Below are positions 8,410-40,036 of a DNA stretch of 45,133 nt, one piece after another. Where the stretch lies: positions 7,048 to 52,180 of the forward strand of contig DYIW01000002.1 of NCBI GenBank assembly GCA_020723465.1, read 5' to 3'. A program made the translations under genes and the position numbers. A model generated the notes under the pieces. It was not told the DNA's origin. It ran no database searches and saw nothing but the letters and a program-made list of their open reading frames with translations. The stretch is from Phycisphaera mikurensis (lineage in GTDB: Bacteria > Planctomycetota > B15-G4 > JADJEK01). Position 1 is the stretch's first letter. Each line of letters opens with the position of its first letter.

Positions 8410-9858
8410 TCAGTAGCGGAAGGTGCGCTTCTCGATCTTCGTCTCGAACGGTCCCACCTGGTACTGGCACGCGATGACGTACTCGACGCCCTTCTTGGGG
8501 CCGCTCCATGCGGCCGAGCAGCTAAAGCCTCACCCGTACTTGAAGGTGCCCTGGGCGACATTCTCACCCGCGGCCGTGACGATGGTGTAGCTCGGTTCCG
8601 CCGGGCGGGCCCTGCTGCTCTGCGAGAGGACGACCGAGCTCTTCTTGCCCGAGACGAGCTGGAGGTCGGTCAGGAGCTCCTGAGCCCGTCCCTGGACGTT
8701 GAACCCGAGGTCGGCCTCAGTCGCGCCGGTCTCCTGCATGTTGCGCAGGGACCATTCAGACACCTGCGCCACGGGCAGGTAGGGCTCGCCGAACTCGAGC
8801 AGGGCCTCGGCGCCGGGCGCGACGCTCAGGAAGGGCGTGGCGCCGCTGCCTGCGGCCTCGAGCCGCCAGAGGTCGCCCTCCTTGCCGCTCTGCAGCAGCG
8901 CGTAGCGGAGCAGCCGCCAGTCGCCGGCCGGGATCCTGGGATTGACCGGCCGGTGCATCATGACGCAATGCGCGAAGTTCCGCTCGAGCAGGGTCAGGCG
9001 CTCCGGCGCCTGGGAGAGCTTGAGCGGCACGATCTCGTCCTCTACCGGCGCGAGCGCCAGCTTCCTGGCGGCCGTGTCGACCTTCACCGTGAACGCCTTC
9101 TCGCCGAGGATCAGGAGATCGCCCAGCAGAAACTCGTCCGCTCGCGACATCTTCTGCTCGGCCGTGAGGTACAGGCTGTCCCCCTGCGCGTAGATCGGCT
9201 GATCCGCGGACACGTACAAGTTCTCGGGGATGCGCGCCGTGTCGGAGAAGACTCCGTTGCAGTCGCCGTCCCCGAGCATGACCTGGTAGGTGGCGCCGTC
9301 CAGCGTGAACGAGCCGGCGTAGTGGCAGGCGGTGTCGACGCCGAAGTAGATGAAGCGCGCGGCGTCGCCGCCGTCCTCCTGGTTCTGCCCCTGCAGGCGG
9401 AAGCCCAGCCGGTAGGGCAGGACTGCGCCGCCGAGGCGGTATTCGACCGAGACCTCGTCGTCGAAGGAGACGTAGTACTGCTCGATGTCGCCGAAGCGGG
9501 CCAGATCTCCCACGAGGACCGGGTCGTCCGTGAGGTCGCCGTTGTCGTTCCGGTCGAAGCGGATGCGGTTGTAGAAGCCGTCGTCCGCCGCGACGCGATC
9601 AAGCACGGCCAGGAAGTCGGTCTCGCCGAGGGTCACGGTTGCGAAGAGCGGCCGCGCGCCGGTCAAGTCCGGCAGGTTCCAGTCGCCGCCGGGACAGTCG
9701 GGTGAAGGCTGCGCGTGGGCGCTCCCCCAGGGATGGACAGCGTCCTTGTCGTCGAGGTTCTGCCGGTACTCGAGCGCCACCTCCAGCGTCTGCGCGGGCG
9801 CGAGGCCGCACAGCAGCAAAAGCAGCGCGAGGGACCGGACCGGGAATCCACAGATCAT
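8410..9858 (-). CDS. Exported putative selenoprotein, YG-U-GFxC family paralog 1 (482 aa, Sec codon at 8530-8532)
   Basis: Signal peptide and DxNxNGDLTDD motif. The frame continues past TGA: ...GTFKYG-U-GFSCSAAWSGPKKGVEYVIACQYQVGPFETKIEKRTFRY*. This extension matches the post-UGA extension of 15729..17198, and a SECIS-like hairpin follows. Confidence 0.85.
8490..8532 (-). promoter_or_regulatory. Candidate bacterial SECIS element
   Basis: UGA-14 nt-GGCCGC[AUGGA]GCGGCC; the loop starts 20 nt after the UGA. Confidence 0.7.
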
Positions 9859-10026
9859 CTTCCAGCCTCCTTTCTGGGTGAACGATCCAGCATATCAGGT
9901 TGTGCACGGGCTGCCAGCCGCCAGGGGGCGGGCGGCGCGTCCCCTGGCCCGGTGGTCGCTACCCGGCGAGGCTCTCGACGCCTACGATCGACGGGGCAGC
10001 GTGGCCGTGTACGGAGGGTGGCAAGC

Positions 10027-10719
10027 ATGGACCGAATCGCCGTGACCGTTGCCGCTGGCGTCGTGTTGCTGTTCGTGACCGGAGGCTGCGCGCGGAAGGA
10101 AGAACGTCCACCGGCCGCCGAGGGAACCTTCGCGATTTCCGGCTTGCCGGCCGAGATGACGGTGACGCAGCGATCCACGACGGCGGTCCCGGGATCGGAC
10201 GGGCGCGTGCGCGTGACCGTCGATGACGTCACGCGCGGCCAGGTGACGGTCACGGTGCTCGCCGAGGATGGGAGCGCGCTTGCCGGTCCGACGTCTCTTT
10301 GCCCGGCAGACCGCGTGCGATTCGCGGCGGGCGGGGGCGCCTACGTGCTGCAGCTCGAGGCGCTGGACAACGCGCTGGTGGGCGAGGACCACGCCACCCT
10401 TGTGATCGCCGCCGCGGAGGCCGGCCCGCCGGAGCGCGAGAAGATCGAGCGGCTGCTCGCGTTCGTGGCGTCGATGCAGGACGCGGTCTTCATCCGCAAC
10501 GGCGCCGAGTATCCGGCCGCGGAGGCCGCCGACCATCTGCGCTGGAAATGGGAGGCGGCCGGCGCCCGCATCCGCACGGCCGAGCAGTTTATCGAGGAGA
10601 TCGCGACGCGGTCCTCGGCCAGCGGAGAGGCCTACCAGATCCGGCTCAAGGACGGCGTGCTCGTGCCCGCGGGCGAGTACCTGAAAGAGCGGCTGGCCGA
10701 GATCAATGAGAACGGCTAG
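10027..10719 (+). CDS. Lipoprotein with C-terminal DUF5329 (YfeK-like) domain
   Basis: Lipobox-like VTGGC. C-terminal EREKIERLL...FIRNGAEYPAAEAADHLRWK...TAEQFIEEIATRSSASGEAYQI is recognisable as DUF5329. Confidence 0.75.
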   Translation: MDRIAVTVAAGVVLLFVTGGCARKEERPPAAEGTFAISGLPAEMTVTQRSTTAVPGSDGRVRVTVDDVTRGQVTVTVLAEDGSALAGPTSLCPADRVRFAAGGGAYVLQLEALDNALVGEDHATLVIAAAEAGPPEREKIERLLAFVASMQDAVFIRNGAEYPAAEAADHLRWKWEAAGARIRTAEQFIEEIATRSSASGEAYQIRLKDGVLVPAGEYLKERLAEINENG

Positions 10720-11536
10720 CGGGCGGCGCCTGCGGCCGCGAGCGCGGCGTGCGCGGCTTGGGCCCGCGCTGCACGCACACGGTCTGGCACTCGTGGCAGA
10801 CCACGCAGTCGAGGGCGCGGCTGGCGGGAACGCCCGCGCGGAAGCGCTCGGAGGGCTTGCCTTCCATGGGACAGACCTTGTTGCACTTCTCGCACTTGAG
10901 GCATTCGAACTTGGCCGGGCTGACGCTCCACAGGCTGACGTGATTGAAGGGCGCGAGCATGGCGCCGAGCGGGCACAGGACGCGGCAGAAGCCGCGCTCG
11001 AAGAAGAGCACGAGCAGCAGCACGAGGACGAGCACGCCTAGCTTGATCGCCGTGGCCAGGCTGATCGCGGCGCCGCCGATCAGGTTGGGGATCGTGACCT
11101 GGAGCGCGGAGGCGGGGCAGACGCGGCAGAAGGACCAGAGGGTCTCGGCGCCGAAGAACCAGGGCAGAGTGAAGATGGTGAGCAGGAGCACCAGGTACTT
11201 GATGTACGTGGTCCAGGCCGGCAAGGAGAGCTTGGGCGTGGGGATCTTGTGCAGCAGGTCCTGCAGGAAGCCGAAGGGGCACACCCAGCCGCACAGCAGG
11301 CGGCCGAGCAGCGCGGCCAGCAGCAGGAAGAGGCCGAGCGTCAGATAGGGGAGGACGTGCCAGCCCGAGTAATGCACGAAGATGCCCATCGGGCAGGCGA
11401 ACCAGGCGAGCGCGCATGAGTGACAGCTCAATACCGGCGCGCAGAACCACTTGAGCTGGAGGGCGGGGCTCCAGGAGCTATGCAGCAGCAGGAGGGAGAA
11501 GGTCTGCACCCACCTCCTGGTCTTCTGGATCATCAT
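10703..11536 (-). CDS. Membrane 4Fe-4S binding protein (NapH/MauN-like)
   Basis: CHSC-x6-CP, CGWVCPFG, CRVCP and FCRVLCPLG motifs, several TM segments, and two ferredoxin motifs (CLKCEKCNKVCP, CVVCHECQTVC). Lies directly downstream of selB. Confidence 0.85.
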   Translation of the reverse strand: MMIQKTRRWVQTFSLLLLHSSWSPALQLKWFCAPVLSCHSCALAWFACPMGIFVHYSGWHVLPYLTLGLFLLLAALLGRLLCGWVCPFGFLQDLLHKIPTPKLSLPAWTTYIKYLVLLLTIFTLPWFFGAETLWSFCRVCPASALQVTIPNLIGGAAISLATAIKLGVLVLVLLLVLFFERGFCRVLCPLGAMLAPFNHVSLWSVSPAKFECLKCEKCNKVCPMEGKPSERFRAGVPASRALDCVVCHECQTVCVQRGPKPRTPRSRPQAPPASRSH

Positions 11537-11579
11537 GGGAATGGAGTCGTGACAGCGGCGGCCGGGTTGTGAGCTGGTC

Positions 11580-13571
<1,992 letters not shown>

Positions 13572-13613
13572 GCGCTGTCCCTCATCGCCGCCGGAGCTGC
13601 GCTAGCTCCTGCC

Positions 13614-15029
13614 TCATGCGTCTGCGCGCGCCGCGCGCCGCAGGGCTGCATGCACCAGCGCGTCCTCGCCGGCGAGGAGCGTGCGCATGTCGAGGATCAC
13701 CTCCTCCTCGCTGATGCGCGCGATGACGGGCGGCTCGTTCTGGCGCAGGAGCTGGCTCAGCCGGTCGGGGGAATGCCGCGCGCTCCGCACGGCCAGCACG
13801 TAGGTCTTGAGCGGCGTCGCCGGCATGGAGCCGCCGCCCGCGGCGCTCTCGTCCTCCTTGACGCGCGCCTCCAGGGGCAGGCGGTCGGCGTCGATGCGCT
13901 TCTTCAGGCGCTGCGCCCTCCGGCGCAAGTCGGCCGGGTCGGCCGCCAGCATGCGCAGGGTCGGGTGGTTCTCCAGCAGCGTCTCCTCGTCCAGGAACAG
14001 GCGCAGCGTCTGCTCGAGGGCGAGGTCGGTGAGCTTGCACACGCGCATCATGCGGGCGAAGGGGTGCTTCTTGATGCGCGCGACCAGCTCGGCGCGGCCG
14101 ACCACGATGCCGGCCTGCGGCCCGCCGATGAGCTTGTCGCCGCTGAAGCAGACGACGTCCGCGCCGGCGGCGATGCTCTCCTGCACGGTCAGCTCTTTCG
14201 GCAGGCCGAAGCGCGTGGTGTCCACCAGGGCGCCGCAGCCGACGTCGTCGATGACGATCACCGGCCGCTTCTGCTTCAGCGCGACCAGCTCGGCGATGGA
14301 CACTTCCTTGGCGAAGCCGACCACGCGGTAGTTGCTCGGGTTGGCGCGCAGGATGGCGCCGGTGCGCTCGTTGAGCGCCTCCTCGTAGTCGCGCAGGTGC
14401 GTGCGGTTGGTGGTGCCGACCGGCACGGCGATGGCGCCGCTCTGGCGGATGCAGTCCGGCAGGCGGAAGGAGCCGCCGATCTCGATGAGCTGGCCGTGCG
14501 AGACGATGACTTCCTTGCCGGCGCAGAGGGCGGAGAGGATGAGCAGCGTGGCGGCGGCGTTGTTGTTGGTGATCATCGCCGCCTCGGCGCCGGTCAGGCG
14601 CGTGAGCAGGCGCTCGCTCATGTAGCAGCGCTTGCCGCGCTTCCCGGTGTCGAGGTCGATTTGCATGCTGCAGCAACGGTCGAGCGAGGCGAGCGCGGCA
14701 GCGGCGCGCGGCGGCAGCACGGCGCGGCCGAGGCCGGTGTGCAGGATCACGCCCGTGGCGTTCACCACCGGCCGCAGGCGGTCCTTCTCCTCCTCGAGGA
14801 CGATGTGGCGCACGCGCTCCACGACCTCGCCCATGGCCGGCAGCTCATCCCCGGGGCGGAAGGCGCGGCGGAACTCGCCGAGCGCGGCCTTGATGGCGTC
14901 CAGGACCAGGGGGCGCGAGAACTCGGCGATCAGCTCGTGGATGCGCGGTTCCTCGAGCACGGCGTAGACCGGGATGAGCCCGCGTCGCGTGTCGTCGCCG
15001 CCGTCTGGGGGGGAGGAGTCTCGTGTCAT
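13614..15029 (-). CDS. selA: L-seryl-tRNA(Sec) selenium transferase
   Basis: VVNATGVILHTGLGRA, NNNAAA, EIGGSFRLPD, VGTTNRTH and the PLP motif FSGDKLIGGPQAG. Confidence 0.97.
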   Translation of the reverse strand: MTRDSSPPDGGDDTRRGLIPVYAVLEEPRIHELIAEFSRPLVLDAIKAALGEFRRAFRPGDELPAMGEVVERVRHIVLEEEKDRLRPVVNATGVILHTGLGRAVLPPRAAAALASLDRCCSMQIDLDTGKRGKRCYMSERLLTRLTGAEAAMITNNNAAATLLILSALCAGKEVIVSHGQLIEIGGSFRLPDCIRQSGAIAVPVGTTNRTHLRDYEEALNERTGAILRANPSNYRVVGFAKEVSIAELVALKQKRPVIVIDDVGCGALVDTTRFGLPKELTVQESIAAGADVVCFSGDKLIGGPQAGIVVGRAELVARIKKHPFARMMRVCKLTDLALEQTLRLFLDEETLLENHPTLRMLAADPADLRRRAQRLKKRIDADRLPLEARVKEDESAAGGGSMPATPLKTYVLAVRSARHSPDRLSQLLRQNEPPVIARISEEEVILDMRTLLAGEDALVHAALRRAARADA

Positions 15030-15044
15030 GGGCCTATGCAAAAG

Positions 15045-15139
15045 TGGCGGAGGTGAATGGGAGTCGAACCCACCTAGCGTCTAAGCGACGATACGACGGC
15101 TTTGAAGGCCGCGGGAGCCACCGGGCCCCGCTCACCTCC
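15045..15139 (-). tRNA. selC: tRNA-Sec (anticodon UCA)
   Basis: 95 nt with an 8-bp acceptor stem GGAGGUGA/UCACCUCC, anticodon arm GCGGC-CUUCAAA-GCCGU, long variable arm, T arm GUGGG-UUCGACU-CCCAU and encoded GCCA end. Directly upstream of selA. Confidence 0.97.
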
Positions 15140-15169
15140 GCATGTTGTCTGCGCGGCGGCCGCCGATCC

Positions 15170-15198
15170 CTTCTACTTGCGCCCGCTCCTGCCGTCAA
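15170..15198 (-). promoter_or_regulatory. Putative sigma70 promoter of selC-selA-selB
   Basis: TTGACG-N17-TAGAAG, about 30 nt upstream of tRNA-Sec. Confidence 0.55.
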
Positions 15199-15229
15199 GG
15201 CAGCCCGGCCGCCCGGCCGGAGCGGGAGG

Positions 15230-15258
15230 TTGCCGCGTCGTCGCTCGTGCGGTAGCAT
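15230..15258 (+). promoter_or_regulatory. Putative divergent sigma70 promoter for the two selenoprotein genes
   Basis: TTGCCG-N17-TAGCAT, back-to-back with the selC promoter. Confidence 0.5.
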
Positions 15259-15349
15259 CCTGGACGCAGGCAGCCGCCGTTCCGGCCGCGCGGGTCGTTC
15301 CTCCGCGCCGGGGGGCGCTTGCCAGGACCGTCCGGAGGTGCGGCGTTTC

Positions 15350-15631
15350 ATGGCGGCAGGACCCTGGGTCAGGAAGTCGGCGGCTGCCGTCATTCTCGCC
15401 GGGAGCGTGGTGCTGATCGCGGCCGCGCGCGAGCGCTCGTACGACGTGCGCGTGCTGGACGCCGACGAGCTGGCCGAGGTGCTGGGCGTCGCGCCCTTCG
15501 ATCAGATCAGCGAGACGCAGCTCGCCATCGACGCCACCTTCACCGGCGTCATCCGCAAGGAGGGTGGGCTCTACTCCACCTACGACCGGTCGCAGCCGCG
15601 CAGCAAGCGAGCCTGCCCGACGTGACAGTAG
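15350..15631 (+). CDS. Small membrane-anchored protein with C-terminal C-P-T-U-Q (putative CxxU selenoprotein, 93 aa)
   Basis: ATG 15350 after GGAGG, N-terminal hydrophobic helix, ends ...KRACPT TGA CAG TAG. SECIS-like hairpin at 15641-15659. Confidence 0.7.
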
Positions 15632-15660
15632 TCCTTCCTTGCCGGTCACGGCGACCGGCT
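15623..15660 (+). promoter_or_regulatory. Candidate SECIS element (mostly in the 3' UTR)
   Basis: UGA-15 nt-GCCGGUC[ACGGC]GACCGGC; the loop starts 22 nt after the UGA. Confidence 0.55.
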
Positions 15661-15728
15661 GACCAACTATTGATGCAGCAGAAGCGGCGCGGAGGCGGTG
15701 CGCTCGCACCCCGCGCCGAGGAGCCGAG

Positions 15729-17198
15729 ATGACAGGAGCGTGGAAACGACTCGCGCGGGCGGGCCTGTTCGCGGGCGCGCTCGCCGCGCCGGCCCTGGCC
15801 GAGGAGGTGGCGCTGGAGTACGTGCGCTACCCGGAAGGCGAGCAGGAGGACGAGGCGTTCCTGCCGCGCTTCACCCGCGCCATCGAGGAGATCGCGACCA
15901 GCGCGCCGCGCGGGGACTTCAAGCTGCCGCCGCTCCAGAGCAAGGAGCCCCTGTTCGCGCTCCTCGAGCTGGGCGGGGAGCCGCGGCTGCTCGTCTTCGA
16001 CCGCGCGGACGCCGGCGATCCTTTCTTCAACGTCCTTTACTGCGACGCCGATGGGGACGGCGACCTGACGAACGACCCGGCCCTGAAGAGCGTCGATGCC
16101 GAGGCCTTGCCGGGCTACCTCGAGCTGCCGCCGCTCGATCTGAAGGTGCGCGCGGGCTCCGGCCGCGCGGACTACAGCCTGCGCGTCACACTCACCTCGA
16201 GCGCGCTGCTCGAGGGCGGGGAGCTGAGCGACCCGCTCGACCTCGAGGACCTTTCCCTGCAGATCACCCCCAACTGCTGCTACGCGGGCGAAGCGGCCTG
16301 CGCCGGCGGCGCCTGCCGCCTGCTGCTCGCCGACGCGAACGTCAACGGGCGCTTCGACGACGTGGTTCGGCTCGACTCTGACGGCTACGAACCGTTCCAG
16401 GCCATCGAGCCCGCGGGCGACCTGCTCTACCTGACCACCGCGGGCACAGTCGAGGCAAGCGACTTCTGCGCGCTCGGGAACGTGCTCGCGCTCGGCCAAG
16501 ACGTGTTCCAGGTGAAGGTCGACGCGGCCGCGCGGAAGCTCGTGCTCGAGCTTTGCGCCGACGCCAGCGCGACCCTCGACCTGCCGCAGGACTGCGAGCG
16601 CCTCTGCCTCGCCTCCGAGGACGGCGGAACGTACGTGGTTCTGTTCCAGCCGGGCCGGAGCGCCTCCGTCCCTGCCGGGAAGTACCGGGTCGCCGCCTAC
16701 CGGCTGCGGCGCGCCGACGCCGAGGGCGACGTGAGGAGCCTGGCCGCGGCCGCCACGCCGCGCACGCCTTTCTTCATGGCGGCAGCGGGCGCGTCCACGG
16801 CCGTGGCCTTCGGCGAGCCCTTCGCGCCGGCGGCGCGCGTGCCGCCGAGCGCCTACGAGGAGGCCGCGGGCGCGACACCGGAATCCGTGCCGGTCGAGTT
16901 CCGCATCGACGGCAGCGCCCAGGAGGTCGTCACCGACCTCAGGCGCGTCTCGGGCAGCGCGACCAAGATCGAGATGGACGGGGTGAAGACGCACCTGCCG
17001 AAGGCGCCGGCCTACGTGATCCTGTCCGCGGCCGGGAAGATCGCTGCGCGCGGCGCCTTCGAGTATGGCTGAGGCTTCACCTGCTCGGCCACATGGGCTG
17101 GCCCAGAAGCGCAGACCAAGTACGTCGTCGTGTGCACCTACCAGGTGGGGCCCTTCGCCAGCGCGAAGGTGAAGGAGGAGATCGCGCCCTTCCCGTAG
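15729..17198 (+). CDS. Exported putative selenoprotein, YG-U-GFxC family paralog 2 (489 aa, Sec codon at 17070-17072)
   Basis: Signal peptide ending ALA-EE and DADGDGDLTND motif. Reads ...GAFEYG-U-GFTCSATWAGPEAQTKYVVVCTYQVGPFASAKVKEEIAPFP*. Collinear with 8410..9858 on both sides of the UGA. Confidence 0.85.
17070..17110 (+). promoter_or_regulatory. Candidate bacterial SECIS element
   Basis: Lower stem GCUUC/GAAGC and upper stem GGCCA[CAUGGGC]UGGCC; AUGG starts 20 nt after the UGA. Confidence 0.65.
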
Positions 17199-17268
17199 TC
17201 CTGCAGGCGCGTCCGAGCGCAACCTGATCGACGGGGTGTGCTCCTAACATTGAGCGGCTACCGGGGTC

Positions 17269-17340
17269 TCGTGCCCGTGCCCGTGCCCGACGGTAGCGAA
17301 CGCCATGACCCGCTTCGATCGGGCACGGGCACGGGCACGA
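17269..17340. repeat. Perfect 22-bp inverted repeat built from (GTGCCC)3
   Basis: TCGTGCCCGTGCCCGTGCCCGA (17269-17290) and TCGGGCACGGGCACGGGCACGA (17319-17340), with a 28-nt spacer. Confidence 0.9.
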
Positions 17341-17565
17341 AACAGCCAGCCCGCCTGCTCAGGGTCGCACGCAGACCCGCGCAATCGACTTCCTCTATCA
17401 GCGCGATTCGCCGTTTCTCTTTCGCGGCGCCGAGATGGGGGAGGCGGTGCCGCCGCGCACCGGGAACGGCCCGAAAGCGGCGCTCGGCCCGCAAATTGCA
17501 TATGGGTTTTGGAGTCGGTACGCTCGCTCGTTCGCTTCCGGCGCCAGCCAGGTGGAGTTGGACCA

Positions 17566-19671: not shown

Positions 19672-19691
19672 GGCGCCGCAAGGAGAGAGCC

Positions 19692-20885: not shown

Positions 20886-20979
20886 GCGCGGTGATGCGTG
20901 CCCTGGCCCGGCCTCCCCGGGTACGATCTCGCCGGCGGGAACTCCCCCGTCGCAGGCGAGATTGGCGAGGTGCACGAAC

Positions 20980-21876: not shown

Positions 21877-21880
21877 CGCG

Positions 21881-29033: not shown

Positions 29034-29063
29034 CGCGCGGGCCGCCGGAGACGACGAGAGCCC

Positions 29064-30044: not shown

Positions 30045-30180
30045 GTGCGCTTGCCTCCAGCCGCTCGCGCGGCGTTCGCGGAATCGCGGATTCTAGCAGC
30101 CCGGCGCGGGCCCGGGCGTCGACCGTTCCGTTGCCTGCTGGTAGACTCCCCGTCAGGAGGCCAACCGCAGGTCAAGCGCC

Positions 30181-30471: not shown

Positions 30472-30811
30472 GGAGTGGTTCTTTCGCGTCCAGGACATGC
30501 TCGACGCGCTGGCGCGGATCCGCGAGTACACGGCGTCACTCGACGAGGTGTCGTTTCGTTCCAATCGTCTGGTGGTCGACGCCGTCATTCGCAACATCGC
30601 GACGCTGGGGGAGGCGGCCAGCGCCGTACCGTTTGACGTTCGCGAGAGGCACCCCGCAATACCCTGGCAGAAGCTCGTGTCCATGCGAAACGTCCTCGTC
30701 CACGAGTACTTCGGCATCAGCCTGGAAGTCGTCTGGCGAACGATCCAGGACGATCTCCCTCCACTGAGTACCTTGCTGGCCGATCTCGATAAGGCCGAAG
30801 GCGGACCGTAG
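30461..30811 (+). CDS. HEPN (DUF86) RNase toxin (HepT-like)
   Basis: IPW...MRNVLVHEYFG fits Rx4HxY. Overlaps the MNT stop codon. Confidence 0.9.
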   Translation: MPRREWFFRVQDMLDALARIREYTASLDEVSFRSNRLVVDAVIRNIATLGEAASAVPFDVRERHPAIPWQKLVSMRNVLVHEYFGISLEVVWRTIQDDLPPLSTLLADLDKAEGGP

Positions 30812-31140
30812 GGTTCCGGCGACTCCTTGGTGCTTACTTCGGTGCGCCATTGTTGCCTGTCGCGCGCGACGGACCATGGTGCAGCGGTCGACCCCTTCCC
30901 GCAGACTTGTCGGCGTACGTCGCACGAGTGCATCCGCGACACAAACTGCCATGCGCGATGGATTTACGCCGACGCAGGTGCTCCGCTCGGGCGCTGGCGG
31001 TGCTCCCCGGCGGGTTCTCTTCGCGACCCCGCGCCACGCGGCGAGATCCGAGCTATTCCTTCGCGGGCATGCGCTCCGCGACCGACATCCGGCACGCGGC
31101 ACGGCAGCCACGGCAAGACCAACACGGAGTCCACAAGGCC

Positions 31141-31467
31141 ATGATCAAGCTCACAAACACGGCCAGCGAAGAGGTGAAGAGACTGATCCAGTCCCAGAGC
31201 GGCGCACAGCCGAAGTTCCTGCGCGTCGCCGTGGCCGCGGGAGGCTGCTCGGGCTGGTCGTACCGGCTCGCCTTCGACTCGAAGCAGGAGAAGGAGGACG
31301 TGGTGAGCGAGCAGGAGGGCGTCAAGATCGTGTGCGACCCCCGCTCCTATCGCCTCCTGAAAGACGCCGAGATCCGCTTCGAGGGCGGCCTGCAGGGCCG
31401 CGGCTTCGTGTTTCACAATCCGAACGCCGCCAGCACCTGCGGCTGCGGCGACTCGTTCTGCTCCTGA
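31141..31467 (+). CDS. HesB/IscA family Fe-S cluster assembly accessory protein
   Basis: GGCSGWSY and NPNAASTCGCGDSF motifs. Confidence 0.92.
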   Translation: MIKLTNTASEEVKRLIQSQSGAQPKFLRVAVAAGGCSGWSYRLAFDSKQEKEDVVSEQEGVKIVCDPRSYRLLKDAEIRFEGGLQGRGFVFHNPNAASTCGCGDSFCS

Positions 31468-31554
31468 TCCCGCGCGCCGCGCGTTCGCGCTTGCCGCCAC
31501 GGCTGCTTTCGGCTCTGCTCTGCAGTTCCGACCGCATGTCTCCGGAGGAGCGCC

Positions 31555-33951
31555 GTGGCAGGACGCATCGGGGTCTTCGTCTGCGAGTGCAAGGGGCAGG
31601 TAACGGGGACGATCGACGTGGTGCGCGTGGCGGCGGCCGCGCGCGCCTTGCCCGACGTGGAGTTCGCCGAGCAGGTCGACATGCTCTGCGGCGAGGCCGA
31701 CCTCGGCGTCGCGGTGCGCCGCCTGCGCGACCGCGGCTGCGACCGCATGCTGTTCGCCGGCTGCTCGCCGCGTTCCTCGCTGAAGTTTCCGGAAGAGCGC
31801 ATCGCGCGCGTGATGGGGGGCCTGGGGCAGCCTGACGCGCTGTTCGAGGTGGCGAACATCCGCGAGCAGTGCGCCTGGCAGCACGCGGACCGCGATCTCG
31901 CCACGCGCAAGGCCGTGGATCTGGTGCGCATGGCGCACGCGCGCCTCCTGACCCTCGAGCCGCCGCCCGAGCCCGTGCCCCTGCCCGGCCGCGCGCTGGT
32001 GGTGGGAGGCGGGCCCGCGGGCCTGCAGGCGGCGAAGGACCTGGACGCGGTCGGCGTCGACGTGACGCTGGTGGAGCGCCGGCCCTGGCTCGGCGGCCGG
32101 CTCTGCCAGCTCCTGCGCGTCTACCAGTCCGAGGGGTGGCCGTCGGTGTGCGACAGCTCCTGCGTCGGGCCGGTGCAGTGTAAGGGCGTGCTGCTCTCCG
32201 AGCGCATCCAGGCCTACACGCGCGCCCGCGTGACCGCCGTGGAGCGCGTCGACGGCCGCTTCCGCGTGACCATCGCCGCGGCGCCCGAGCACGTGGATCC
32301 CGCGCGGTGCATCTCCTGCGGCGAGTGCGCGCGCGTCTGCCCGGAGGAGACGCCGCGCCTGGCAGACGAGGGGTTGTCGCGGCGCAAGGCGATCGACAAG
32401 GAGTTCGAGCGGGCGCTGCCCGATTCCTACTCGATCGTGGAGGAGGCGTGCACGCGCTGCGGCGCGTGCGTGCCGGCCTGTCCCACGCAGGCAATCGACC
32501 TCGAGCGCGCGCCGCGGCGCTTCACCGTGGATTACGGTGCCGTGTTCCTGGCTGCGGGCGTCGACGCCCTCGACCTCGCGGCCTACCCGCAGTACCTGCG
32601 TTCGCACCCGAACGTGGTCAGCGGCATCGAGTTCGAGCAGATCATGGCGCGCGGCTTCAAGCGCCCCTCGGACGGCGGCGTCCCCGAGCAGGTCGTCTTC
32701 GTGCAGTGCGCCGGCTCACGCGCCGGCCCGGACAAGGAAGTGGGCGGCGTGCCCTACTGTTCCAAGACGTGCTGCGCGGTGACGGTCAAGCAGGTGGACC
32801 GCATGGCCGCGGCCAACCCGGCCATCGAGGCCACGGTGGTCTACTACCGCGACATGCGCACCTACGAGCGCGCGCTCGAGTCCCTGTACCAGAACCTGCG
32901 GAACGTCGGCATCGAGTTCGTGAACGGCGAGGTGACGGGTATCGAGGGCGCGGGCGACGGCCGCCTGGCGCTGCAGGTCGCTCCTTATGTGCCGGGCGAG
33001 GCCGGCGAGGAACCCGAGCCGCTTCGCCTCGAAGCCGACCTGGTGGTCTTGGCCGCGGCGCAGGAGCCGGCGCGCGGCTCGGCCGAGCTGTTCCGCATGT
33101 TCGGCGCCGGCACCGATCGCCACGGCTTCCCCATCGAGAACCAGCCGCGCCTGTTCCGGCCGACCGAGTCGCTGGTGAACCGCGTGTTCGTGGTGGGCGA
33201 GTCGACCGGGCCGAAGGCGGTGCAGCAGTGCGCGGAGCAGGGCAGCGCCGCGGCCATGCGCGCGCTGCCGGAGCTGCTCGCCGGCCGAACGCTGCCGCCG
33301 CGCTTCGCCAGCCGCATCGACCCGCGTCGCTGCATCACGTGCCGCGTCTGCGAAACGGTCTGCCCGCACGGCGCCATCCGCATCACGGAAGAGGGCGCCT
33401 GCAGCGATCCGGCCTTCTGCCAGGCCTGCGGCCTGTGCGCCGCGGCCTGCCCGGTGCACGCGGCCGAGCTCAGGAACTTCAGCGACCGGCAGATCCTGGC
33501 CCAGGCGGAAGTCGCGTTCCGCGAGCTGCCGGCGGGGGAGCCGCGCATCCTGGCGATGCTCTGCTACTGGTGCTCGTACAGCGCCGCCGACTTCGCCGGC
33601 GTGGAGCGCGTCAAGGCGCCCGCGAACTACCGCGTCATCCGCATGCGCTGCTCCAGCTCGGTGAACACCGGCCTGGTGCTGGAGATGTTCAGGATGGGCG
33701 CCGACGGCATCCTGGTGGCCGGCTGCCCGGAGAAGAGCTGCCATCACCTGTGGGGCAACTTCCTGGCGGACAAGCGCACCGACCTGGCGCGCGCGCTCCT
33801 CTCGCAGCTCGGCGTCGAGCCCGGCCGCCTGCGCTTCGAGTACATCGGCGCGCCCATGCAAGCGAAGCTCATGACGGCCTTGCGCGACATGGACAAGAAG
33901 CTGCGCCAGCTCGGCCCGAACCCGGCGGCGCGGGCGGCGGGAGGCGCGTGA
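31555..33951 (+). CDS. Heterodisulfide reductase subunit A-like flavoprotein fused to an MvhD domain
   Basis: GVFVCEC, AGCSPR, NIREQCAW, GGGPAG (FAD) and QCAGSR...YCSKTCC motifs, four ferredoxin motifs, then MvhD-type CYWCSY...RCSS...GCPEKSCH. Confidence 0.9.
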   Translation: MAGRIGVFVCECKGQVTGTIDVVRVAAAARALPDVEFAEQVDMLCGEADLGVAVRRLRDRGCDRMLFAGCSPRSSLKFPEERIARVMGGLGQPDALFEVANIREQCAWQHADRDLATRKAVDLVRMAHARLLTLEPPPEPVPLPGRALVVGGGPAGLQAAKDLDAVGVDVTLVERRPWLGGRLCQLLRVYQSEGWPSVCDSSCVGPVQCKGVLLSERIQAYTRARVTAVERVDGRFRVTIAAAPEHVDPARCISCGECARVCPEETPRLADEGLSRRKAIDKEFERALPDSYSIVEEACTRCGACVPACPTQAIDLERAPRRFTVDYGAVFLAAGVDALDLAAYPQYLRSHPNVVSGIEFEQIMARGFKRPSDGGVPEQVVFVQCAGSRAGPDKEVGGVPYCSKTCCAVTVKQVDRMAAANPAIEATVVYYRDMRTYERALESLYQNLRNVGIEFVNGEVTGIEGAGDGRLALQVAPYVPGEAGEEPEPLRLEADLVVLAAAQEPARGSAELFRMFGAGTDRHGFPIENQPRLFRPTESLVNRVFVVGESTGPKAVQQCAEQGSAAAMRALPELLAGRTLPPRFASRIDPRRCITCRVCETVCPHGAIRITEEGACSDPAFCQACGLCAAACPVHAAELRNFSDRQILAQAEVAFRELPAGEPRILAMLCYWCSYSAADFAGVERVKAPANYRVIRMRCSSSVNTGLVLEMFRMGADGILVAGCPEKSCHHLWGNFLADKRTDLARALLSQLGVEPGRLRFEYIGAPMQAKLMTALRDMDKKLRQLGPNPAARAAGGA

Positions 33952-33952
33952 C

Positions 33953-34966
33953 ATGGCGGCGAAGGTGAAGATCGCGATGACCTGGGCCGCGGCCTGCGGC
34001 GGCTGCGACGTGGCGCTGCTCGACCTCGAGGCCAAGCTGCTCGAGCTGACGCGCATCGCGGACTTGGTCTACTGGCCGGTGGCGCTCGACTTCAAGCGCC
34101 GCAACCTCGCGGCCCTGCCGGACGGAGGCCTGGACATCGGCCTGTATAACGGCGCGGTGCGCACCAGCGAGCAGGAGGAGGACGCGCTCCTTTTGCGGCG
34201 GAAGGCGCGACTGCTCGTGGCCTGCGGCTCCTGCGCTTGCTTCGGCGGCGTGCCCGGGCTCGCCAACCTCTCCGACCGGGAGGGGATCTTCGCGGTCGCC
34301 TACGGCAGCACGCCCTCGACCGAGAACCCGGAGGGCGTGGCGCCCGAGCCGCGCTGCTCCGTGAACGGGAACGAGCGCACCCTTCCCGAGTTCCACGACA
34401 CGGTGAAGAGCCTGGCGCAGGTCGTGCCGGTGGACGCCTTCCTGCCCGGCTGCCCGCCGCCGGGCGAAAGGCTCGAGGACCTGGCCGGCATCGTGGCGCG
34501 CTTCGCCGCCACGGGCGAGGCGCCGCCGCGCGGCGCGGTGCTCGCGAGCGACAAGGCCCTGTGCGACGAGTGCCCGCGGAACGGCTCGCGGAAGGGCGGG
34601 CGCGTCTCCGAGTTCAAGCGGCCGCACCAGCTCCTCGCCGATCCCGAGGTCTGCTTCCTCGAGCAGGGCCTGATCTGCATGGGTATCGCCACGCGCGGCG
34701 GCTGCGGGCTCTCGTGCATTCGGGCGAACATGCCGTGCCGCGGCTGCTTCGGCCCGACCGCGCAGGCCCTCGACCCGGCCGCCGAGGCGCTCTCCGCCCT
34801 CGGCTCTATCGCCGGCGACGCCAACGAGAACGACGTGCCCGCGCACGTGATGAAGCGCGCGGTGCAGAGCATCCGCGACCTGGCCGGCACCTGTTACCGC
34901 TTCACGCTGCCCGTCGCTCTGCTGAACCGCGCCGTGCGGGACGTTCCCGCGGAGAAGTCGCCGTGA
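33953..34966 (+). CDS. mvhG: Group 3c [NiFe]-hydrogenase small subunit
   Basis: ACGGC, GSCACFGG, PGCPP, CDECP, CFLEQGLICMG and PCRGCFG motifs. Confidence 0.88.
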   Translation: MAAKVKIAMTWAAACGGCDVALLDLEAKLLELTRIADLVYWPVALDFKRRNLAALPDGGLDIGLYNGAVRTSEQEEDALLLRRKARLLVACGSCACFGGVPGLANLSDREGIFAVAYGSTPSTENPEGVAPEPRCSVNGNERTLPEFHDTVKSLAQVVPVDAFLPGCPPPGERLEDLAGIVARFAATGEAPPRGAVLASDKALCDECPRNGSRKGGRVSEFKRPHQLLADPEVCFLEQGLICMGIATRGGCGLSCIRANMPCRGCFGPTAQALDPAAEALSALGSIAGDANENDVPAHVMKRAVQSIRDLAGTCYRFTLPVALLNRAVRDVPAEKSP

Positions 34967-36435
34967 AGGAGACGATCACCATCGACCCCATCACGCGGCT
35001 CGAGGGCCACGGCCGCATCGACATCCTGCTCGACGACGCCGGGAACGTCCTCGACGCCTACCTGCAGGTGGTCGAGCTGCGCGGCTTCGAGAAGTTCTGC
35101 CAGGGGCGGCCAGTGGAGGAGCTGCCGCGCATCACGCCGAAGATCTGCGGCGTCTGCCCGGGCGCGCACCACATCGCCTCGGCCAAGGCGTGCGACGCGG
35201 TCTATGGTGTGGAGCCGCCGCCCGCGGGCCGGAAGCTGCGCGAGCTGTTCCTGAACGCGCACATCGCGCACAGCCACCTGCTGCACTTCTTCGCGCTGGC
35301 CGCGCCGGACTTCCTGCTCGGCGCGGAGGCGCCCGCGGCGCGGCGCAACCTGCTCGGCCTGATCGACGCGCTCGGCGAGGAGACCGGCCGGGCGGTGCTG
35401 CGCGCGCGCGGCCTGGCGCAGAAGATCCAGGCCATCATCGCCGGCCACGCCATCCACCCGGTCGCCGCCCTGCCGGGCGGCATGGCCAAGCCGCTGTGCG
35501 CGGACGAACGCGCCGCCATCGAGGAGATGGCCGCGGAGCTGGCCGCGTTCTGCGAGCAGGCGCTCGCGCTCTTCGAGACGCGCGTGCTCGGCGACCGCAC
35601 CTGCGCCGCGGCGATCGAGAGCGACACGTACTGCCATGAGACCCACTACGCGGGCCTGGTCGATCCGGCCGGGCGGGTGAACTTCTACGACGGCAAGGTG
35701 CGCGTGGTCGCTCCGGACGGGAACGAGATCGCGCTGTTCGCGGCGCAGGACTACCTCGAACACATCGCCGAGCGCGTGGTGCCCTGGTCGTACCTGAAGA
35801 TCCCGTACTTGAAGAAGGTCGGTTGGCAAGGGCTCACGGACGGGGCGCGAAGCGGCGTCTATCGCGTGAACTCCCTGGCGCGGCTGAACGTGGCCTCGGG
35901 CATGGCCACGCCGCGGGCGCAGGAGGGGTACGAGCGCCTGTTTGCGCGTTTCGGCAAGAAGCCGGTGCACCACACGCTCGCCTACCACTGGGCGCGGCTC
36001 ATCGAGTGCCTGTTTGCCGGCGAGGAGACGCTGCGCCTGGCGCGTGATCCGGAGATCGCGGACGCGCGCGTGCGCGTGGTGCCGAGCGGCACGCCCAAGG
36101 AGGGCGTGGGCGTGGTCGAGGCGGCGCGCGGCACGCTCTACCACCACTACCGCACCAACTCGCAGGGCATGGTCGAGGCGGTGAACCTCATCGTCGCCAC
36201 GGCGCAGAACAACGCGGCCATGAACATGTCGGTGAAGAAGGCGGCCGCGGAGCTGATCCGCGGCGGCGAGGTGGACGAGCGGCTCCTGAACCGCGTGGAG
36301 ATGGCGTTTCGCGCCTACGACCCGTGCCTCGCCTGCGCAACGCACGCCTTGCCGGGGCGGATGCCGTTCGAGGTCCGCCTCTACCGGGGCGGAGGGCTGG
36401 TGCGGACGCTCAGCCGCGGCTTCTCGTGTCCTTGA
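34963..36435 (+). CDS. mvhA: Group 3c [NiFe]-hydrogenase large subunit
   Basis: GTG start overlapping the mvhG stop, TRLEGHG, L1 motif KICGVCP, EAARGTLYHHY, and L2 motif YDPCLACATH with a cleavable C-terminal tail. Confidence 0.9.
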   Translation: MKETITIDPITRLEGHGRIDILLDDAGNVLDAYLQVVELRGFEKFCQGRPVEELPRITPKICGVCPGAHHIASAKACDAVYGVEPPPAGRKLRELFLNAHIAHSHLLHFFALAAPDFLLGAEAPAARRNLLGLIDALGEETGRAVLRARGLAQKIQAIIAGHAIHPVAALPGGMAKPLCADERAAIEEMAAELAAFCEQALALFETRVLGDRTCAAAIESDTYCHETHYAGLVDPAGRVNFYDGKVRVVAPDGNEIALFAAQDYLEHIAERVVPWSYLKIPYLKKVGWQGLTDGARSGVYRVNSLARLNVASGMATPRAQEGYERLFARFGKKPVHHTLAYHWARLIECLFAGEETLRLARDPEIADARVRVVPSGTPKEGVGVVEAARGTLYHHYRTNSQGMVEAVNLIVATAQNNAAMNMSVKKAAAELIRGGEVDERLLNRVEMAFRAYDPCLACATHALPGRMPFEVRLYRGGGLVRTLSRGFSCP

Positions 36436-36660
36436 CCGCCAGGGTCTTCGCGCCGTGCGAGAACCCCATACAGGATCGACGAGCGAGGCGGTCTTCAAAC
36501 GCGGTGGCAAGAAAGACGGCAGGAGTGGTTCGAAGGGCCCTACTGACTACCGACTACCAACTTCCCACTCGCGGCGGCGCGCACGCCCCCGCGGCTGGGC
36601 GCGAACCTCGTGCCTGAGATGGACGCTGGCCGCCAAGTCTGGTCGAGGGGCCGCCGCAGT

Positions 36661-37128
36661 GTGAGGACTCTCGTCGTCGGCATCGGCAGCACCATTCTCG
36701 GTGACGACGGCGTCGGTGTGCACGCCGCCCGCCGCCTGCGCGAGCGTGACCTGCCGGAGGGAGTGGACGTCGAGGAGGCCGGCATCGCCGGACTGGGGCT
36801 GCTCGATCTCGCTTTGGGATACGACCGCCTGATCGTCATCGACGCGATCCTCACCGGCGCGGCCCCAGGCACGATCCACGTGCTCGAGGGAAACGATGTC
36901 GCCCGCGCCGCTCACCTCGGCCCCGCGCACGAGGCGGACCTGCCCGGAAGCCTCGACATCGGGAGGAAGCTGCTGGGGGCCGCCATGCCGAGGGAGGTCC
37001 TGGTCGTGGCGATCGAGGCAGCGGACGTCACGACGTTTTCCGAGTCGATGAATGACGACGTCGAGGCCGCGATCCCGAGGGCGCTGGCGCAGGTGGAGGA
37101 GCGGCTGCGGGGCGCGCGAGATCCTTGA
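36661..37128 (+). CDS. Hydrogenase maturation protease
   Basis: VVGIGSTILGDDGVG and IVIDAI...APG motifs. Confidence 0.9.
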   Translation: MRTLVVGIGSTILGDDGVGVHAARRLRERDLPEGVDVEEAGIAGLGLLDLALGYDRLIVIDAILTGAAPGTIHVLEGNDVARAAHLGPAHEADLPGSLDIGRKLLGAAMPREVLVVAIEAADVTTFSESMNDDVEAAIPRALAQVEERLRGARDP

Positions 37129-38176
37129 AAAACGAGCCGGCTTCGCTCGTTCTTCGCGGTTCGACCTGCAGGATCCAGACGATCTGGCCCGTCTCCGAGA
37201 ACCGAAGCTCGCGCTGGGAGGTCTCGATGGGCTGGTCGTTCTCGACGAGGTCCAGCGGCGCCCAGATCTCTTCCCGCTCCTGCGCGTGCTGGTCGATCGT
37301 CCCGGGGCGAAGGCCCGCTTCCTGATCCTGGGAAGTGCCTCGCCGGAGCTGCTGCGGCAGAGCTCCGAGAGCCTGACGGGACGTGTCGCCTACCACGATC
37401 TCGAGGGCCTCGCCCTCGATGAGGTGGGGCTCGCCGAGCGGGACGTTCTGTGGGAACGCGGCGGGTTTCCCCGGTCCTTCCTCGCTGTCTCGGACGAGGC
37501 CAGCGCCGAGTGGCGTCGCGGCTTCGTCCGGACATTCCTCGAGCGGGACATCCCTCAACTCGGCGTCCAGATTCCCTCGGCGACGCTCTCGCGCTTCTGG
37601 CGGATGCTGGCCCACTATCACGGACAGCTCTGGAACGGCGCCGAGCTGGCGCGGGCATTCGGTGTCGCCGCGTCGACGGTTCGCCGCTACCTCGACGTGC
37701 TGAGCGGTGCGCTCGTGGTTCGCCAGTTGCCGCCCTGGCACGAGAACCTCGCCAAGCGGCAGGTCAAATCCCCCAAGGTCTACGTCGCCGACTCGGGCCT
37801 CCTCCACACGCTGCTCGGCCTCGAGACGCGCGCGGACCTCGATTCCCATCCGAAGATCGGCGCGTCGTGGGAGGGTTTCGTCCTCCACGAGGTGGCGACC
37901 CGGCTCGGCGCAAGGCCCGGGGAGAGCTTCTTCTGGGCGACGCATGCCGGCGCCGAGCTCGATCTCCTGGTCGTCCGCGGCCGGCGGCGCCTCGGCTTCG
38001 AGGTCAAGCGAACGACGGCGCCGTCCACGACGCGCTCCATGCACTCCGCCATCGAGTCGCTTGGTCTGGAGCGGCTGGACGTCGTTCACGCGGGAGACCA
38101 CACGTTCGCGCTGACCGAGCGCATCCGCGCCGTGAGCTTCGCGAGGTTGTTCGAGGACGTCGAGCCGCTGGCCTGA
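37125..38176 (+). pseudogene. AAA_14/DUF4143 ATP-binding protein lacking its N-terminal Walker A
   Basis: LDEVQR (Walker B), ILGSAS, SESLTGR, GGFP, SPKVYVADSG and FEVK are present. No GxRxxGKT is found upstream in frame; that sequence is occupied by the protease 3' end. Confidence 0.6.
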
Positions 38177-38198
38177 CCGGCCGTCGCGGGACGGCCGG
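38177..38198. terminator. Hairpin between convergent stop codons
   Basis: CCGGCCGTC-gcgg-GACGGCCGG, a perfect 9-bp stem. No U-tract. Confidence 0.4.
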
Positions 38199-38200
38199 GC

Positions 38201-40036
38201 CTACTCCTCCTTCTCCTCCTCGAGCAAGCCGAGCTTCTTCAGGGCCTCGTCGATGCGGTTCTCGCCGAAGCCGTACCACGCGTCCACGACCTTGCCCTCG
38301 CGGTCGATGACGTAGGTCATGGGAACGGCGCTCATGCCGAGGGTCTCGTACTTGCTGGTCACTTCCCAGGCCTTCTGCGAGGGGTCGAGCACGTTCGGGA
38401 AGGTGACCTTGTTCTCCTTCATGTAGTCGATGGCGATCTGGCGGTCATCGGCCTCGTTCAGGCCGAGGACGACCAGGCCCTTGTCGCGGTACTTCTCGTA
38501 GATTGCTTGGAGACTCCCTGTCTCCTCTCGGCAAGCGGGTCAGCCACAGCGCCACTTGTTCAGCCAGACCACGTTGCCGCGATAGTCCGAGAGGCGGATC
38601 GTGCTGCCGTCCACGGCCGGAAGCTCGAAGTCGGGCGCCTCGGCGCCCGGCGGCAGCAGGCCTTCCTCGATGGGCGGGAAGTCCCACTCCTTCCAGCCCT
38701 CGGGCGGCTTCCACTGGAACTGCTCGGGCGCGATCTCCGGGTTGAGCGTCACCTCGGACCAGTCCTCGTACACGAGCAGGTTGAAGCTGACGCGCACCAC
38801 CTCCTCGAGCTTGCGCGGCAGGTGGTCCTTCTTCGACAGCCACAGGTACCAGCTCCGCTGATGGTCCATGATGCTGACTTCGATCTTGTCGCACTCCTCA
38901 TCCGCGACCGCGTCGCTGCCCAGGCTCCGCACCCCGTCCACGTAGGGCTGCAGCGAGTCGGAGTAGCCGTGGAAGGTGCTCGGGTCGAGGATGGTCATCG
39001 ACATGCCGGCGCCCAGGCTGCCGACCTCGTGGCCGATGGAGTGGCGCCCGACCGGCGTGCGCTTCGTCATGTAGTACGAGTCCTTGTACTGCTCGTACTC
39101 CGCGGCGTACTTGCCGCCGTTCTCCTCCCACGGGTAGCGCGGCTTGCCGGGCGGCCAGTAGATCCAGAAGTGGTCGCCGTCGCCCACGAGCACGCCGGTC
39201 AGCTCGCCTTGCTCGTTGCAGACTTCCACGCGCGCGTAGTTCGGCTTCTTCAGCCAGATGCGGTACGTGGCCTTGGAGGGATGCTCGTCCCCCTCCCTGC
39301 CGAACTGGTAGCTGCTGACCCAGGAGAGCGACTCGGCTTCCCACATGGCGTCGATCATCGCGTCATAGAGGGCGCGGCCGGCTGCATCGCCCTCGAACTT
39401 GGGGGAGGGGCTCTCTTCCCCGGCGAACTGCGCGCCCGCGAACTGCGCGCCCGCGACCTGCGCCGGCTCCTCCGCGTCGAGCAGAGCCTGGACATCTTCG
39501 GTCACGTCACAGTTGCAGAAGAACTGCTCCCCGGCGCGCAGAACGTACGCGGCGCCGGATTCCTGGATGCCGGGATCGAGGATGCGGACCGCGCCCTTCT
39601 CGCGATCGACCTCGAAGCCTTTGCCCTCGAGGAGCCGCGCGCCGTTCAGGATCACGCGCACGCTGCCCGCGGCGAGGGGCCGGTGGAAGAGGAACAGCCC
39701 CGGATCGCGCACCCTGCCATGCACGAACAGCATGTCCACCGCGCAGTCGAAGGCGATCTCGCGCAGCAGGAAGATCTTCCCGCACAGGGGATCGTAGGCG
39801 AAGTCCACGCCGTGTTCGAGGGGCTGCATCTTGCTGGTGCGCCCGCCGGCGCAGATCGACACGTTCAGTCCCTCGGCCTCCAGGGGATTCATGAGCGTGA
39901 ACACGCGCGCGTCGTCGGTCGGCTGTGCGTTCGTGCCAACGACCCCCCCCGCCGCGCGCGCGGTTCCAGCGAACGCGGCGAGCAGCAGGAAGAGGGCGGT
40001 CAACGATCTCGCGGGAAGGGCGTGCGGCGCGGACAT
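38201..40036 (-). CDS. Exported LolA-like + TlpA/AhpC-TSA redoxin selenoprotein (611 aa, U-P-A-C active site, Sec codon at 38540-38542)
   Basis: Track ORFs 38540..40036 and 38201..38422 are in the same frame: APDFELPAVDGSTIRLSDYRGNVVWLNKWRCG-U-PACREETGSLQAIYEKYRDKGLVVLGLN...AVPMTYVIDREGKV. The UGA occupies the first Cys position of CxxC. Confidence 0.93.
38503..38542 (-). promoter_or_regulatory. Candidate bacterial SECIS element
   Basis: Lower stem GCUU/AAGC and upper stem GGAGAC[AGGGA]GUCUCC; the loop starts 20 nt after the UGA. Confidence 0.8.
39423..39463. repeat. Short in-frame 15-bp tandem repeat (AQVAG-AQFAG-AQFAG linker)
   Basis: GCGAACTGCGCGCCC twice plus a degenerate copy, at a domain boundary. 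Confidence 0.7.

Follow-up and report, generated by a model that had tools for sequence, protein, structure and literature searches.

We analyzed a stretch of 45,133 nucleotides (nt) from Phycisphaera mikurensis (Planctomycetota; assembly GCA_020723465.1, contig DYIW01000002.1, positions 7,048 to 52,180; this whole stretch is here referred to as "the window"), in which four genes carry a UGA codon within the reading frame and, about 20 nt behind it, a small hairpin with the string A-N-G-G in its loop. We consider it likely, with a probability of about 0.85, that these four hairpins are functional bacterial selenocysteine insertion sequence (SECIS) elements. This reading had been proposed in a preliminary description of the window, and it is supported by covariation among 74 relatives of the paralog family, by conservation in orthologs and by rare codons after the UGA. 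The same description had taken A-N-G-G for a lineage-specific consensus with which the whole selenoproteome could be found, and this part did not hold. A-N-G-G is a specific but incomplete marker and not the consensus of the genome; what the elements have in common is the published rule, namely a small apical loop, 16–37 nt after the UGA, in which a G is followed by G or U. The assembly under study is of metagenome type, with 5.84 Mb in 456 contigs, 71% GC and 92% completeness.

In-frame UGA codons and their hairpins

All four TGAs were found where they had been reported, each within an open coding frame rich in GC at third codon positions (GC3). An exact Watson-Crick stem search, from which the hairpin geometry is taken, returned a perfect hairpin of 5–7 bp with an A-N-G-G loop at +20 to +22 downstream of every one of them. 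The genes and elements are listed below, where selenocysteine (Sec) is written as U and the Sec and SECIS assignments are predictions.

8410..9858, minus strand: gene of paralog A, 482 aa with U443, a secreted all-beta protein of an unannotated family
8530..8532, minus strand: predicted Sec-UGA of paralog A (FKYG-U-GFSC)
8499..8515, minus strand: predicted SECIS hairpin of paralog A, 6 bp stem, loop AUGGA (8505-8509) starting at +20
15350..15631, plus strand: gene of the 93-aa protein, which has a hydrophobic helix at its N-terminus and CxxU at its C-terminus
15623..15625, plus strand: predicted Sec-UGA of the 93-aa protein (...ACPT-U-Q; stop UAG 15629-15631)
15641..15659, plus strand: predicted SECIS hairpin belonging to the 93-aa protein, within the 3' untranslated region (UTR), 7 bp stem, loop ACGGC (15648-15652) from +22
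15729..17198, plus strand: gene of paralog B, 489 aa with U
17070..17072, plus strand: predicted Sec-UGA of paralog B (FEYG-U-GFTC)
17087..17103, plus strand: predicted SECIS hairpin of paralog B, 5 bp stem, 7-nt loop CAUGGGC (17092-17098) from +19, with the A at +20
38201..40036, minus strand: redoxin gene, 611 aa, a DUF2092-like part and a TlpA/ResA-like thioredoxin fold
38540..38542, minus strand: predicted Sec-UGA of the redoxin (WRCG-U-PAC, U499)
38509..38525, minus strand: predicted SECIS hairpin of the redoxin, 6 bp stem, loop AGGGA (38515-38519) from +20

As had been stated before, the likeness of these hairpins is not a matter of simple homology: in BLASTP comparison with paralog B, the redoxin and the 93-aa protein gave E values of 4.8 and 0.8, respectively. 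For the genome as a whole, we compiled 16 likely Sec sites, which comprise five genes (paralogs A, B and C, the redoxin and the 93-aa protein), eight sites backed by protein domains and three weaker ones. All 16 are followed, at +14 to +32, by a perfect hairpin with 5 bp or more; the corresponding shares are 25.5% among 2996 Cys codons and 28% among 2195 true stops. When G[GU] is also demanded in the loop, 14 of the 16 sites still qualify, against 12.3% of the Cys codons and 12.8% of the stops.

Moreover, the codons after the UGA back a constraint at the RNA level, as do the paralog covariation and the hairpins of the 93-aa orthologs described below. The A/T-ending codons that the preliminary description had called uncommon (ACA, AGT, CAA, GCA, TTT and CCA) indeed make up 2–6.5% of their synonymous sets. 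In the 14 codons that follow each of 15 Sec-UGAs, A/T-ending codons account for 39 of 210, compared with 8.4% genome-wide (p=2e-6), while the 42 codons upstream of the Sec-UGAs contain 50 in 630; in the redoxin they amount to 6 of the 14 codons following the UGA.

Conservation of the hairpins in three gene families

The most extensive comparison is that of the paralog family. Paralogs A and B are 35% identical and contain the sequences ...FKYG-U-GFSCSAAW... and ...FEYG-U-GFTCSATW..., and the family is marked by an invariant C-terminal motif, FEYG-U-GF[TS]C..W. When species-representative genomes were scanned, 75 loci turned up, in Planctomycetota, Hydrogenedentota, Aminicenantes, Sumerlaeota, Verrucomicrobia, Nitrospirales and others, and the motif is present in 63 of these loci. 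All 75 motif sites in the relatives carry TGA; with the three sites of the genome itself, TGA is found at 78 of 78 sites, followed each time by about 40 conserved in-frame codons, and Cys occurs at none of the 78.

The 74 distinct sequences after the UGA align gap-free and share a helix of eight pairs (columns 17-24 with 28-35). Standard pairs fill 86.8% of its cells compared with 66.4% after shuffling, the observed pairing and covariation score was reached by 0 of 500 shuffles, and controls slid along the alignment gave 25–59% pairing. RNAalifold recovered the same helix core independently. Three of the pairs show 25–27 double changes each, with 0–1 unpaired cells:

Pair 19-33: UA 45, GC 24, CG 3, UG 2; unpaired none
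Pair 20-32: AU 49, CG 23, GC 1, UA 1; unpaired none
Pair 22-30: UA 47, AU 22, GC 3, CG 1; unpaired one

Switches within subfamilies are also seen, namely TAC/GTA to CAC/GTG, TCG/CGA to TTG/CAA, and ACG/CGT or CCG/CGG, and the change from TCG/CGA to TTG/CAA is among those that alter both amino acids. The apex UGG is the family Trp codon in 73 of the 74 sequences. Column 24, which corresponds to the A of A-N-G-G, is A in 20 of 24 genes of subfamily 1, including loci of 63–70% GC; the A before UGG is supplied by rare A-ending codons, with a relative synonymous codon usage (RSCU) of 2–3.4%. In 43 of 50 genes of subfamily 2 the same column is G and pairs with C28, which leaves a UGG triloop.

The family is much larger than a simple search indicates: a word-based homolog search gave 3 proteins for paralog B, while an exhaustive profile search gave 2322 clusters at 50% identity (E<=0.001), 560 of them at E<=1e-30. 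Among the best 150 clusters, 145 hold database entries that end exactly at the residue before U, and there is one Cys-type variant with a changed motif. Neither Pfam nor NCBIfam has a family for the paralogs, for the 93-aa protein or for a further candidate with the motif GGC-U-GPKK (see below). The AlphaFold model of paralog B is all-beta, with a mean predicted local distance difference test (pLDDT) score of 90.4, and its Foldseek search against the PDB returned generic beta-sandwich matches only, with template-modelling (TM) scores of 0.15 or lower. Taken together, this looks like a large, unannotated and secreted all-beta family that almost always contains Sec. A NapH-like gene (CGWxCPFG; CGWxCPFGxLQD) lies within the 1.5-kb upstream flank in 17 of the 75 family loci, as it does with paralog A, which suggests that a NapH/MauN-type ferredoxin may be an electron-transfer partner of the family protein.

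The 93-aa protein ends in ...RACPT-U-Q followed by UAG, so that Sec would be its penultimate residue, with only one codon after the UGA. Its hairpin begins 16 nt past the UGA and lies wholly in the 3' UTR, and no U-tract follows it. We found seven distinct orthologs of about 90 aa, each directly upstream of a B-type family gene, and all seven end in CPT-U-x-UAG while the flanking 3' sequence diverges. Their loops are ACGGC (three), AUGGA, AAGGC, ACGGU, in which an A-U pair may close to CGG, and one G-UGG-C triloop, with starts at +19 to +22. The A-N-G-G string is present in six of the seven, at +21 or +22, with a variable N and with stems of different sequence. Since no codon constrains this untranslated loop, it gives the best support for the string. 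The ~90-aa CPT-U-x protein and the B-type gene thus form a conserved two-gene cassette in seven genomes, which stands here beside selC-selA-selB, and its two predicted selenoproteins, sharing an operon, may form a redox pair.

In the redoxin, the AhpC-TSA/Redoxin domain (residues 464-584) spans U499. One TGA is present in 9 of 10 redoxin matches across nine genomes, or 8 of 9 when the other genomes are counted alone. Seven Sec forms were compared, with two matches (L100 and L101) left out, and their loops are AGGGA (two), ACGGA, an AGG triloop, CGCGA, GUU and a distant GGU at +33. The hairpin is kept in six of the seven Sec forms, the seventh having a different hairpin at +33. Their stems alternate between the complementary codon pairs ACA..AGU and AUG..CAU, with paired changes of amino acids. 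The single Cys paralog of the redoxin has the loop UUGCCUU, which lacks a G followed by G or U.

Reach of the A-N-G-G loop in the genome

Next to the four hairpins, we considered how often their form recurs, using a strict grammar: 5 bp or more in the stem, 5–7 nt in the loop, and A-N-G-G placed so that its A falls at +20 to +22. The scans were run with Python descriptors; MAFFT misaligned the unrelated SECIS elements, shifting the 93-aa rows and displacing the GGC-U-GPKK element. The grammar fits 55 of 102,095 TGA triplets genome-wide, and the string is carried by 55 of 2484 (2.2%) suitably placed hairpins after TGA triplets. Among the 2207 TGA ends of GC3-supported open reading frames (ORFs) of at least 150 codons it fits four, namely those of paralogs A, B and C (the last on contig C437) and the redoxin, all of which are selenoprotein genes by the present assignment. 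After the remaining ~2203 TGA stops of long ORFs there is no match, and the pattern is rare behind ordinary UGA stops, as the consensus proposal would have it. This discrete pattern, unlike fold energy, sets the sites apart from chance, though these odds are inflated, since the grammar was derived from the same sites. One further match stands at the end of a 112-codon frame (contig C85) and is probably a true stop, and the other matches lie in non-coding frames.

Specific as it is, the string is only a partial marker, since 6 of the 16 likely Sec codons fit the strict grammar. The loops at the 10 non-fitting sites, at +15 to +31, are CGU, AGUU, CGUGC, GGAAGAGAAA, GUC/GGUCC, CUC or GGUC, CGGGAA, GUC, AGUUG and GUCU. 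These sites include SelD, five redoxin/DsbD-type genes, an AhpD-like gene and others, and a Pfam domain spans 8 of the 10 TGAs. Overall, the Pfam/NCBIfam domains that run across a TGA are four of AhpC/Redoxin type and one each of DsbD type, AhpD/CMD, NMT1/SsuA-like and SelD.

SelD and FdhA had been named beforehand as known selenoproteins whose genes should carry the pattern, and for SelD the expectation failed. SelD (TIGR00476, 353.8 bits) has one internal TGA, followed by a 7 bp stem with the loop GUC at +27. This hairpin recurs at +27 in a sister genome, with the loop GUC, and in another family, with the loop AGG on a stem that has been compensated, and it is missing from two Cys-SelD genes. 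The sister genome (G055) contains both a Cys-SelD and a Sec-SelD, with the hairpin at +27 in the Sec copy only. FdhA could not serve as a control, as no Sec form was found in this 92%-complete assembly, where 8 of 8 molybdopterin oxidoreductase matches are without internal stops.

Several single sites deserve mention. The GGC-U-GPKK candidate is a secreted protein of 271 aa (contig C218) with the putative Sec near the mature N-terminus, and it was found only through the A-N-G-G scan. Its TGA is kept in the sister genome, where the ortholog, of the same genus, has the loop GGUGC instead of AAGGU. In an NMT1/SsuA-like binding protein (contig C277), the TGA lies within the Pfam domain (GHLPVT-U-HLTC) and is followed by an 8-bp hairpin with the loop AGUUG at +21; this protein may belong to an unusual class of selenoproteins. 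In an FG-GAP repeat protein the TGA falls at a non-conserved position of the repeat, with an 8-bp hairpin and the loop GUCU at +21, and an IS110 transposase also contains an in-frame TGA (the two lie on contigs C140 and C341). The TGAs of this pair could be Sec codons, defects or assembly errors.

Selenocysteine machinery, alternative readings and meaning

The genome encodes the full Sec set, that is SelB, SelA, tRNA-Sec and SelD. The selD gene, itself a selenoprotein gene, lies outside the window; the other three, together with a ferredoxin gene, have paralog A on one side and the divergent pair of the 93-aa gene and paralog B on the other:

10703..11536, minus strand: NapH/MauN-type ferredoxin
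11580..13571, minus strand: selB (TIGR00475, 292.5 bits; cut-off 242.25)
13614..15041, minus strand: selA (TIGR00474, 511.7 bits; cut-off 267.9)
15045..15139, minus strand: tRNA-Sec (selC), anticodon UCA (ARAGORN; Rfam RF01852, 73.1 bits)

TGA is the stop of 2252 of 3222 GC3-supported long ORFs, which means that the standard code is used; as TGA is the commonest stop, its reassignment was ruled out. A scan of the window with Rfam (E<=5) found no SECIS family, and tRNA-Sec was its only genuine match. Just past paralog B, at 17264-17347, there is a long near-perfect hairpin with miRNA-like Rfam scores far under the gathering thresholds, which is probably a terminator or a palindromic repeat. Genes for the small and large subunits of a [NiFe] hydrogenase were read from the translations at about 33500-36500 on the plus strand; the large subunit ends in ...DPCLACATH, which makes it a Cys form and not a [NiFeSe] enzyme.

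As judged from the sequence, the ribosome at the UGA would encounter SelB with Sec-tRNA(Sec), which the apical loop some 20 nt downstream would keep in place, and selenocysteine would be inserted in place of termination. A-N-G-G would then be one of the forms in which the known signal recurs, with N-G-G at the apex and its Gs lying about 22–26 nt after the UGA. On its flanks this apex would have either an unpaired A, which makes a pentaloop as in the window, or a closing G-C pair, which makes a triloop as in many relatives. The same genome would also employ loops of the G-U type at other spacings.

Several observations weigh against the hairpins as SECIS elements or reduce the force of the evidence. 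The minimum-free-energy (MFE) folds contain all four hairpins, but in a genome of 71% GC their fold energies are not exceptional. The z-scores against shuffles are -0.32 for paralog A, +0.21 for paralog B, -0.75 for the redoxin and -2.15 for the 93-aa protein, and the MFE of the 45 nt after the 16 Sec codons is the same as after 2996 Cys codons (p=0.42) and 2195 true stops (p=0.47); fold energy was for this reason dropped as a discriminator. Much of the paralog covariation splits the two subfamilies, so that one old event is counted repeatedly, and independent events within subfamilies are fewer. The GG of the loop belongs to a Trp codon in the paralogs and to a Gly codon in the redoxin, and coding constraint alone could keep these Gs. 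In addition, the 16 Sec sites were chosen by eye from 199 candidate frames (frames with a coding signal on both sides of a TGA) and from the pattern scan, and the support is weak for three of them (GKUFGC, GGC-U-GPKK and FG-GAP). Finally, paralogs A, B and C fail a simplified version of the published model, either by the position of the G or because the bare hairpin is weaker than -7.5 kcal/mol. The bare hairpins reach -11.6 (paralog A), -8.2 (redoxin) and -12.8 kcal/mol (93-aa protein), while the 5 bp hairpin of paralog B falls short of -7.5 kcal/mol and its extended MFE fold has -17.6.

We weighed three other explanations. That the UGAs are plain stops or gene defects such as pseudogenes and assembly errors, the hairpins being GC-rich structures or terminators and the 93-aa protein perhaps ending in ...ACPT, is hardly credible. 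Gene callers do terminate all these proteins at the UGA, three of the four hairpins have unremarkable fold energies and the contigs of such an assembly are many, but plain stops would not leave TGA at every family site with conserved codons behind it, a Pfam domain across the redoxin TGA, or genes placed around selC-selA-selB. Nor would they explain why UGA, one codon and UAG are retained in 7 of 7 orthologs of the 93-aa protein, whose 3' flanks diverge and whose hairpin has no U-tract. The view that A-N-G-G at 20–22 nt is the lineage-specific consensus of this SelB, and that a scan with it returns the whole selenoproteome, is very unlikely. It is true that the ordinary TGA stops are free of the string and that the scan recovered the third paralog and the GGC-U-GPKK candidate. 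The untranslated 93-aa elements also keep the string, and the synonymous site before UGG in subfamily 1 keeps the A, even at high GC. Against this consensus speak the 10 likely Sec-UGAs outside the pattern, among them the conserved SelD and several redoxins, the replacement of the A in most of subfamily 2, and the loops AGG, GUU and CGCGA of redoxin orthologs and GGUGC of the GGC-U-GPKK ortholog. Moreover, A-UGG-N loops occur in the paralog family across several phyla, which contradicts specificity for the lineage.

The remaining explanation, by which A-N-G-G is a coincidence combined with coding constraint (Trp UGG, Gly GGG) and a hairpin with some G in its loop suffices, is unlikely but deserves more weight than the two above. 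The nearly invariant Trp codon of the family agrees with it, as do the varying loop codons of the redoxin orthologs (GGG, AGG, GCG, GUU and CGG) and the presence of both GG-type and GU-type loops in one genome. However, the loop of the 93-aa orthologs retains the string where nothing is translated, background hairpins carry it in 2.2% of cases against 6 of 16 Sec sites, and the A before UGG is maintained through rare codons. The recurrence of A-N-G-G beyond what codons explain, including in the untranslated 93-aa element, is thus supported, and the four hairpins are best read as functional SECIS elements in which this string is one form of the signal.

In Escherichia coli, the SECIS elements of fdhF and fdnG are bound by SelB, and the G and U of their GGUC loop are essential. 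By analogy, the presumed mechanism is the same here, with the C-terminal domain of SelB reading an apical loop at a fixed distance. In contrast, the loops in the window have G-G and not G-U, a bulged U is not evident, and the distance of the G is apparently a few nt longer.

Literature searches and passages of seven papers (PMC9312934, PMC13188914, PMC12013277, PMC13326102, PMC1794560, PMC4807772 and PMC10778597) gave nothing on SECIS elements of Planctomycetota or on the paralog family, although the list of BSepDB may hold the family. Sec use in Planctomycetes is documented in PMC4807772. The model of bSECISearch (Zhang & Gladyshev 2005) was taken as summarised in PMC13188914: a loop of 3–9 nt, a stem of 4–16 bp, a spacing of 16–37 nt, an MFE of -7.5 kcal/mol or below, and a G within the first two loop positions, with G or U after it in most cases; some genes depart from these rules. 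Our elements resemble this model in their loops of 5–7 nt, stems of 5–7 bp, spacing of 19–22 nt and G followed by G. They differ from it in that AUGGA, CAUGGGC and ACGGC have their Gs at loop positions 3-4 or later, AGGGA alone having a G where the model puts it, and relatives show the same GG in canonical N-G-G triloops. Of the 16 Sec sites, 11 pass the simplified model, and so do 19.7% of the true stops and 18.1% of the Cys codons. According to PMC13326102, BSepDB has 87.4% of entries with a canonical SECIS and 12.6% without, and adaptations specific to lineages are named there as an open issue.

Bacterial SECIS elements are described as lying inside the coding region in PMC13188914 and PMC13326102, while an element placed after the stop codon works in E. 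coli for rat and human thioredoxin reductase (TrxR), as reported in PMC10778597. The 93-aa protein resembles these engineered constructs in its predicted penultimate Sec and in a SECIS wholly past the stop, and differs from them in being natural and conserved in seven genomes. Archaeal and eukaryotic SECIS elements lie far downstream in the 3' UTR and carry GAA_A or kink-turn quartet motifs (PMC13188914). The only likeness to them is that one of the four elements in the window is untranslated, and SelA and SelB are bacterial here. A tentative idea, which we regard as more doubtful than not, is that the FEYG-U-GF[TS]C family, the CPT-U-x protein and the redoxin form a set linked to selC-selA-selB that has travelled together through several phyla, a natural 3'-UTR SECIS included.

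These results bear on how bacterial selenoproteins are found, as gene callers truncate them at the UGA. In GC-rich genomes the published SECIS model is permissive, its simplified version passing some 18–20% of ordinary stops and Cys codons here. A narrow local loop rule has nearly no false positives, yet it recovers only about a third of the selenoproteome and should therefore be combined with homology. Covariation gives clean support for SECIS elements in three unrelated gene families, and the 93-aa gene offers a natural bacterial SECIS that would act wholly from the 3' UTR. In the case of the paralogs, a widespread family would have a Sec-bearing C-terminal end that is absent from nearly all of its database entries.

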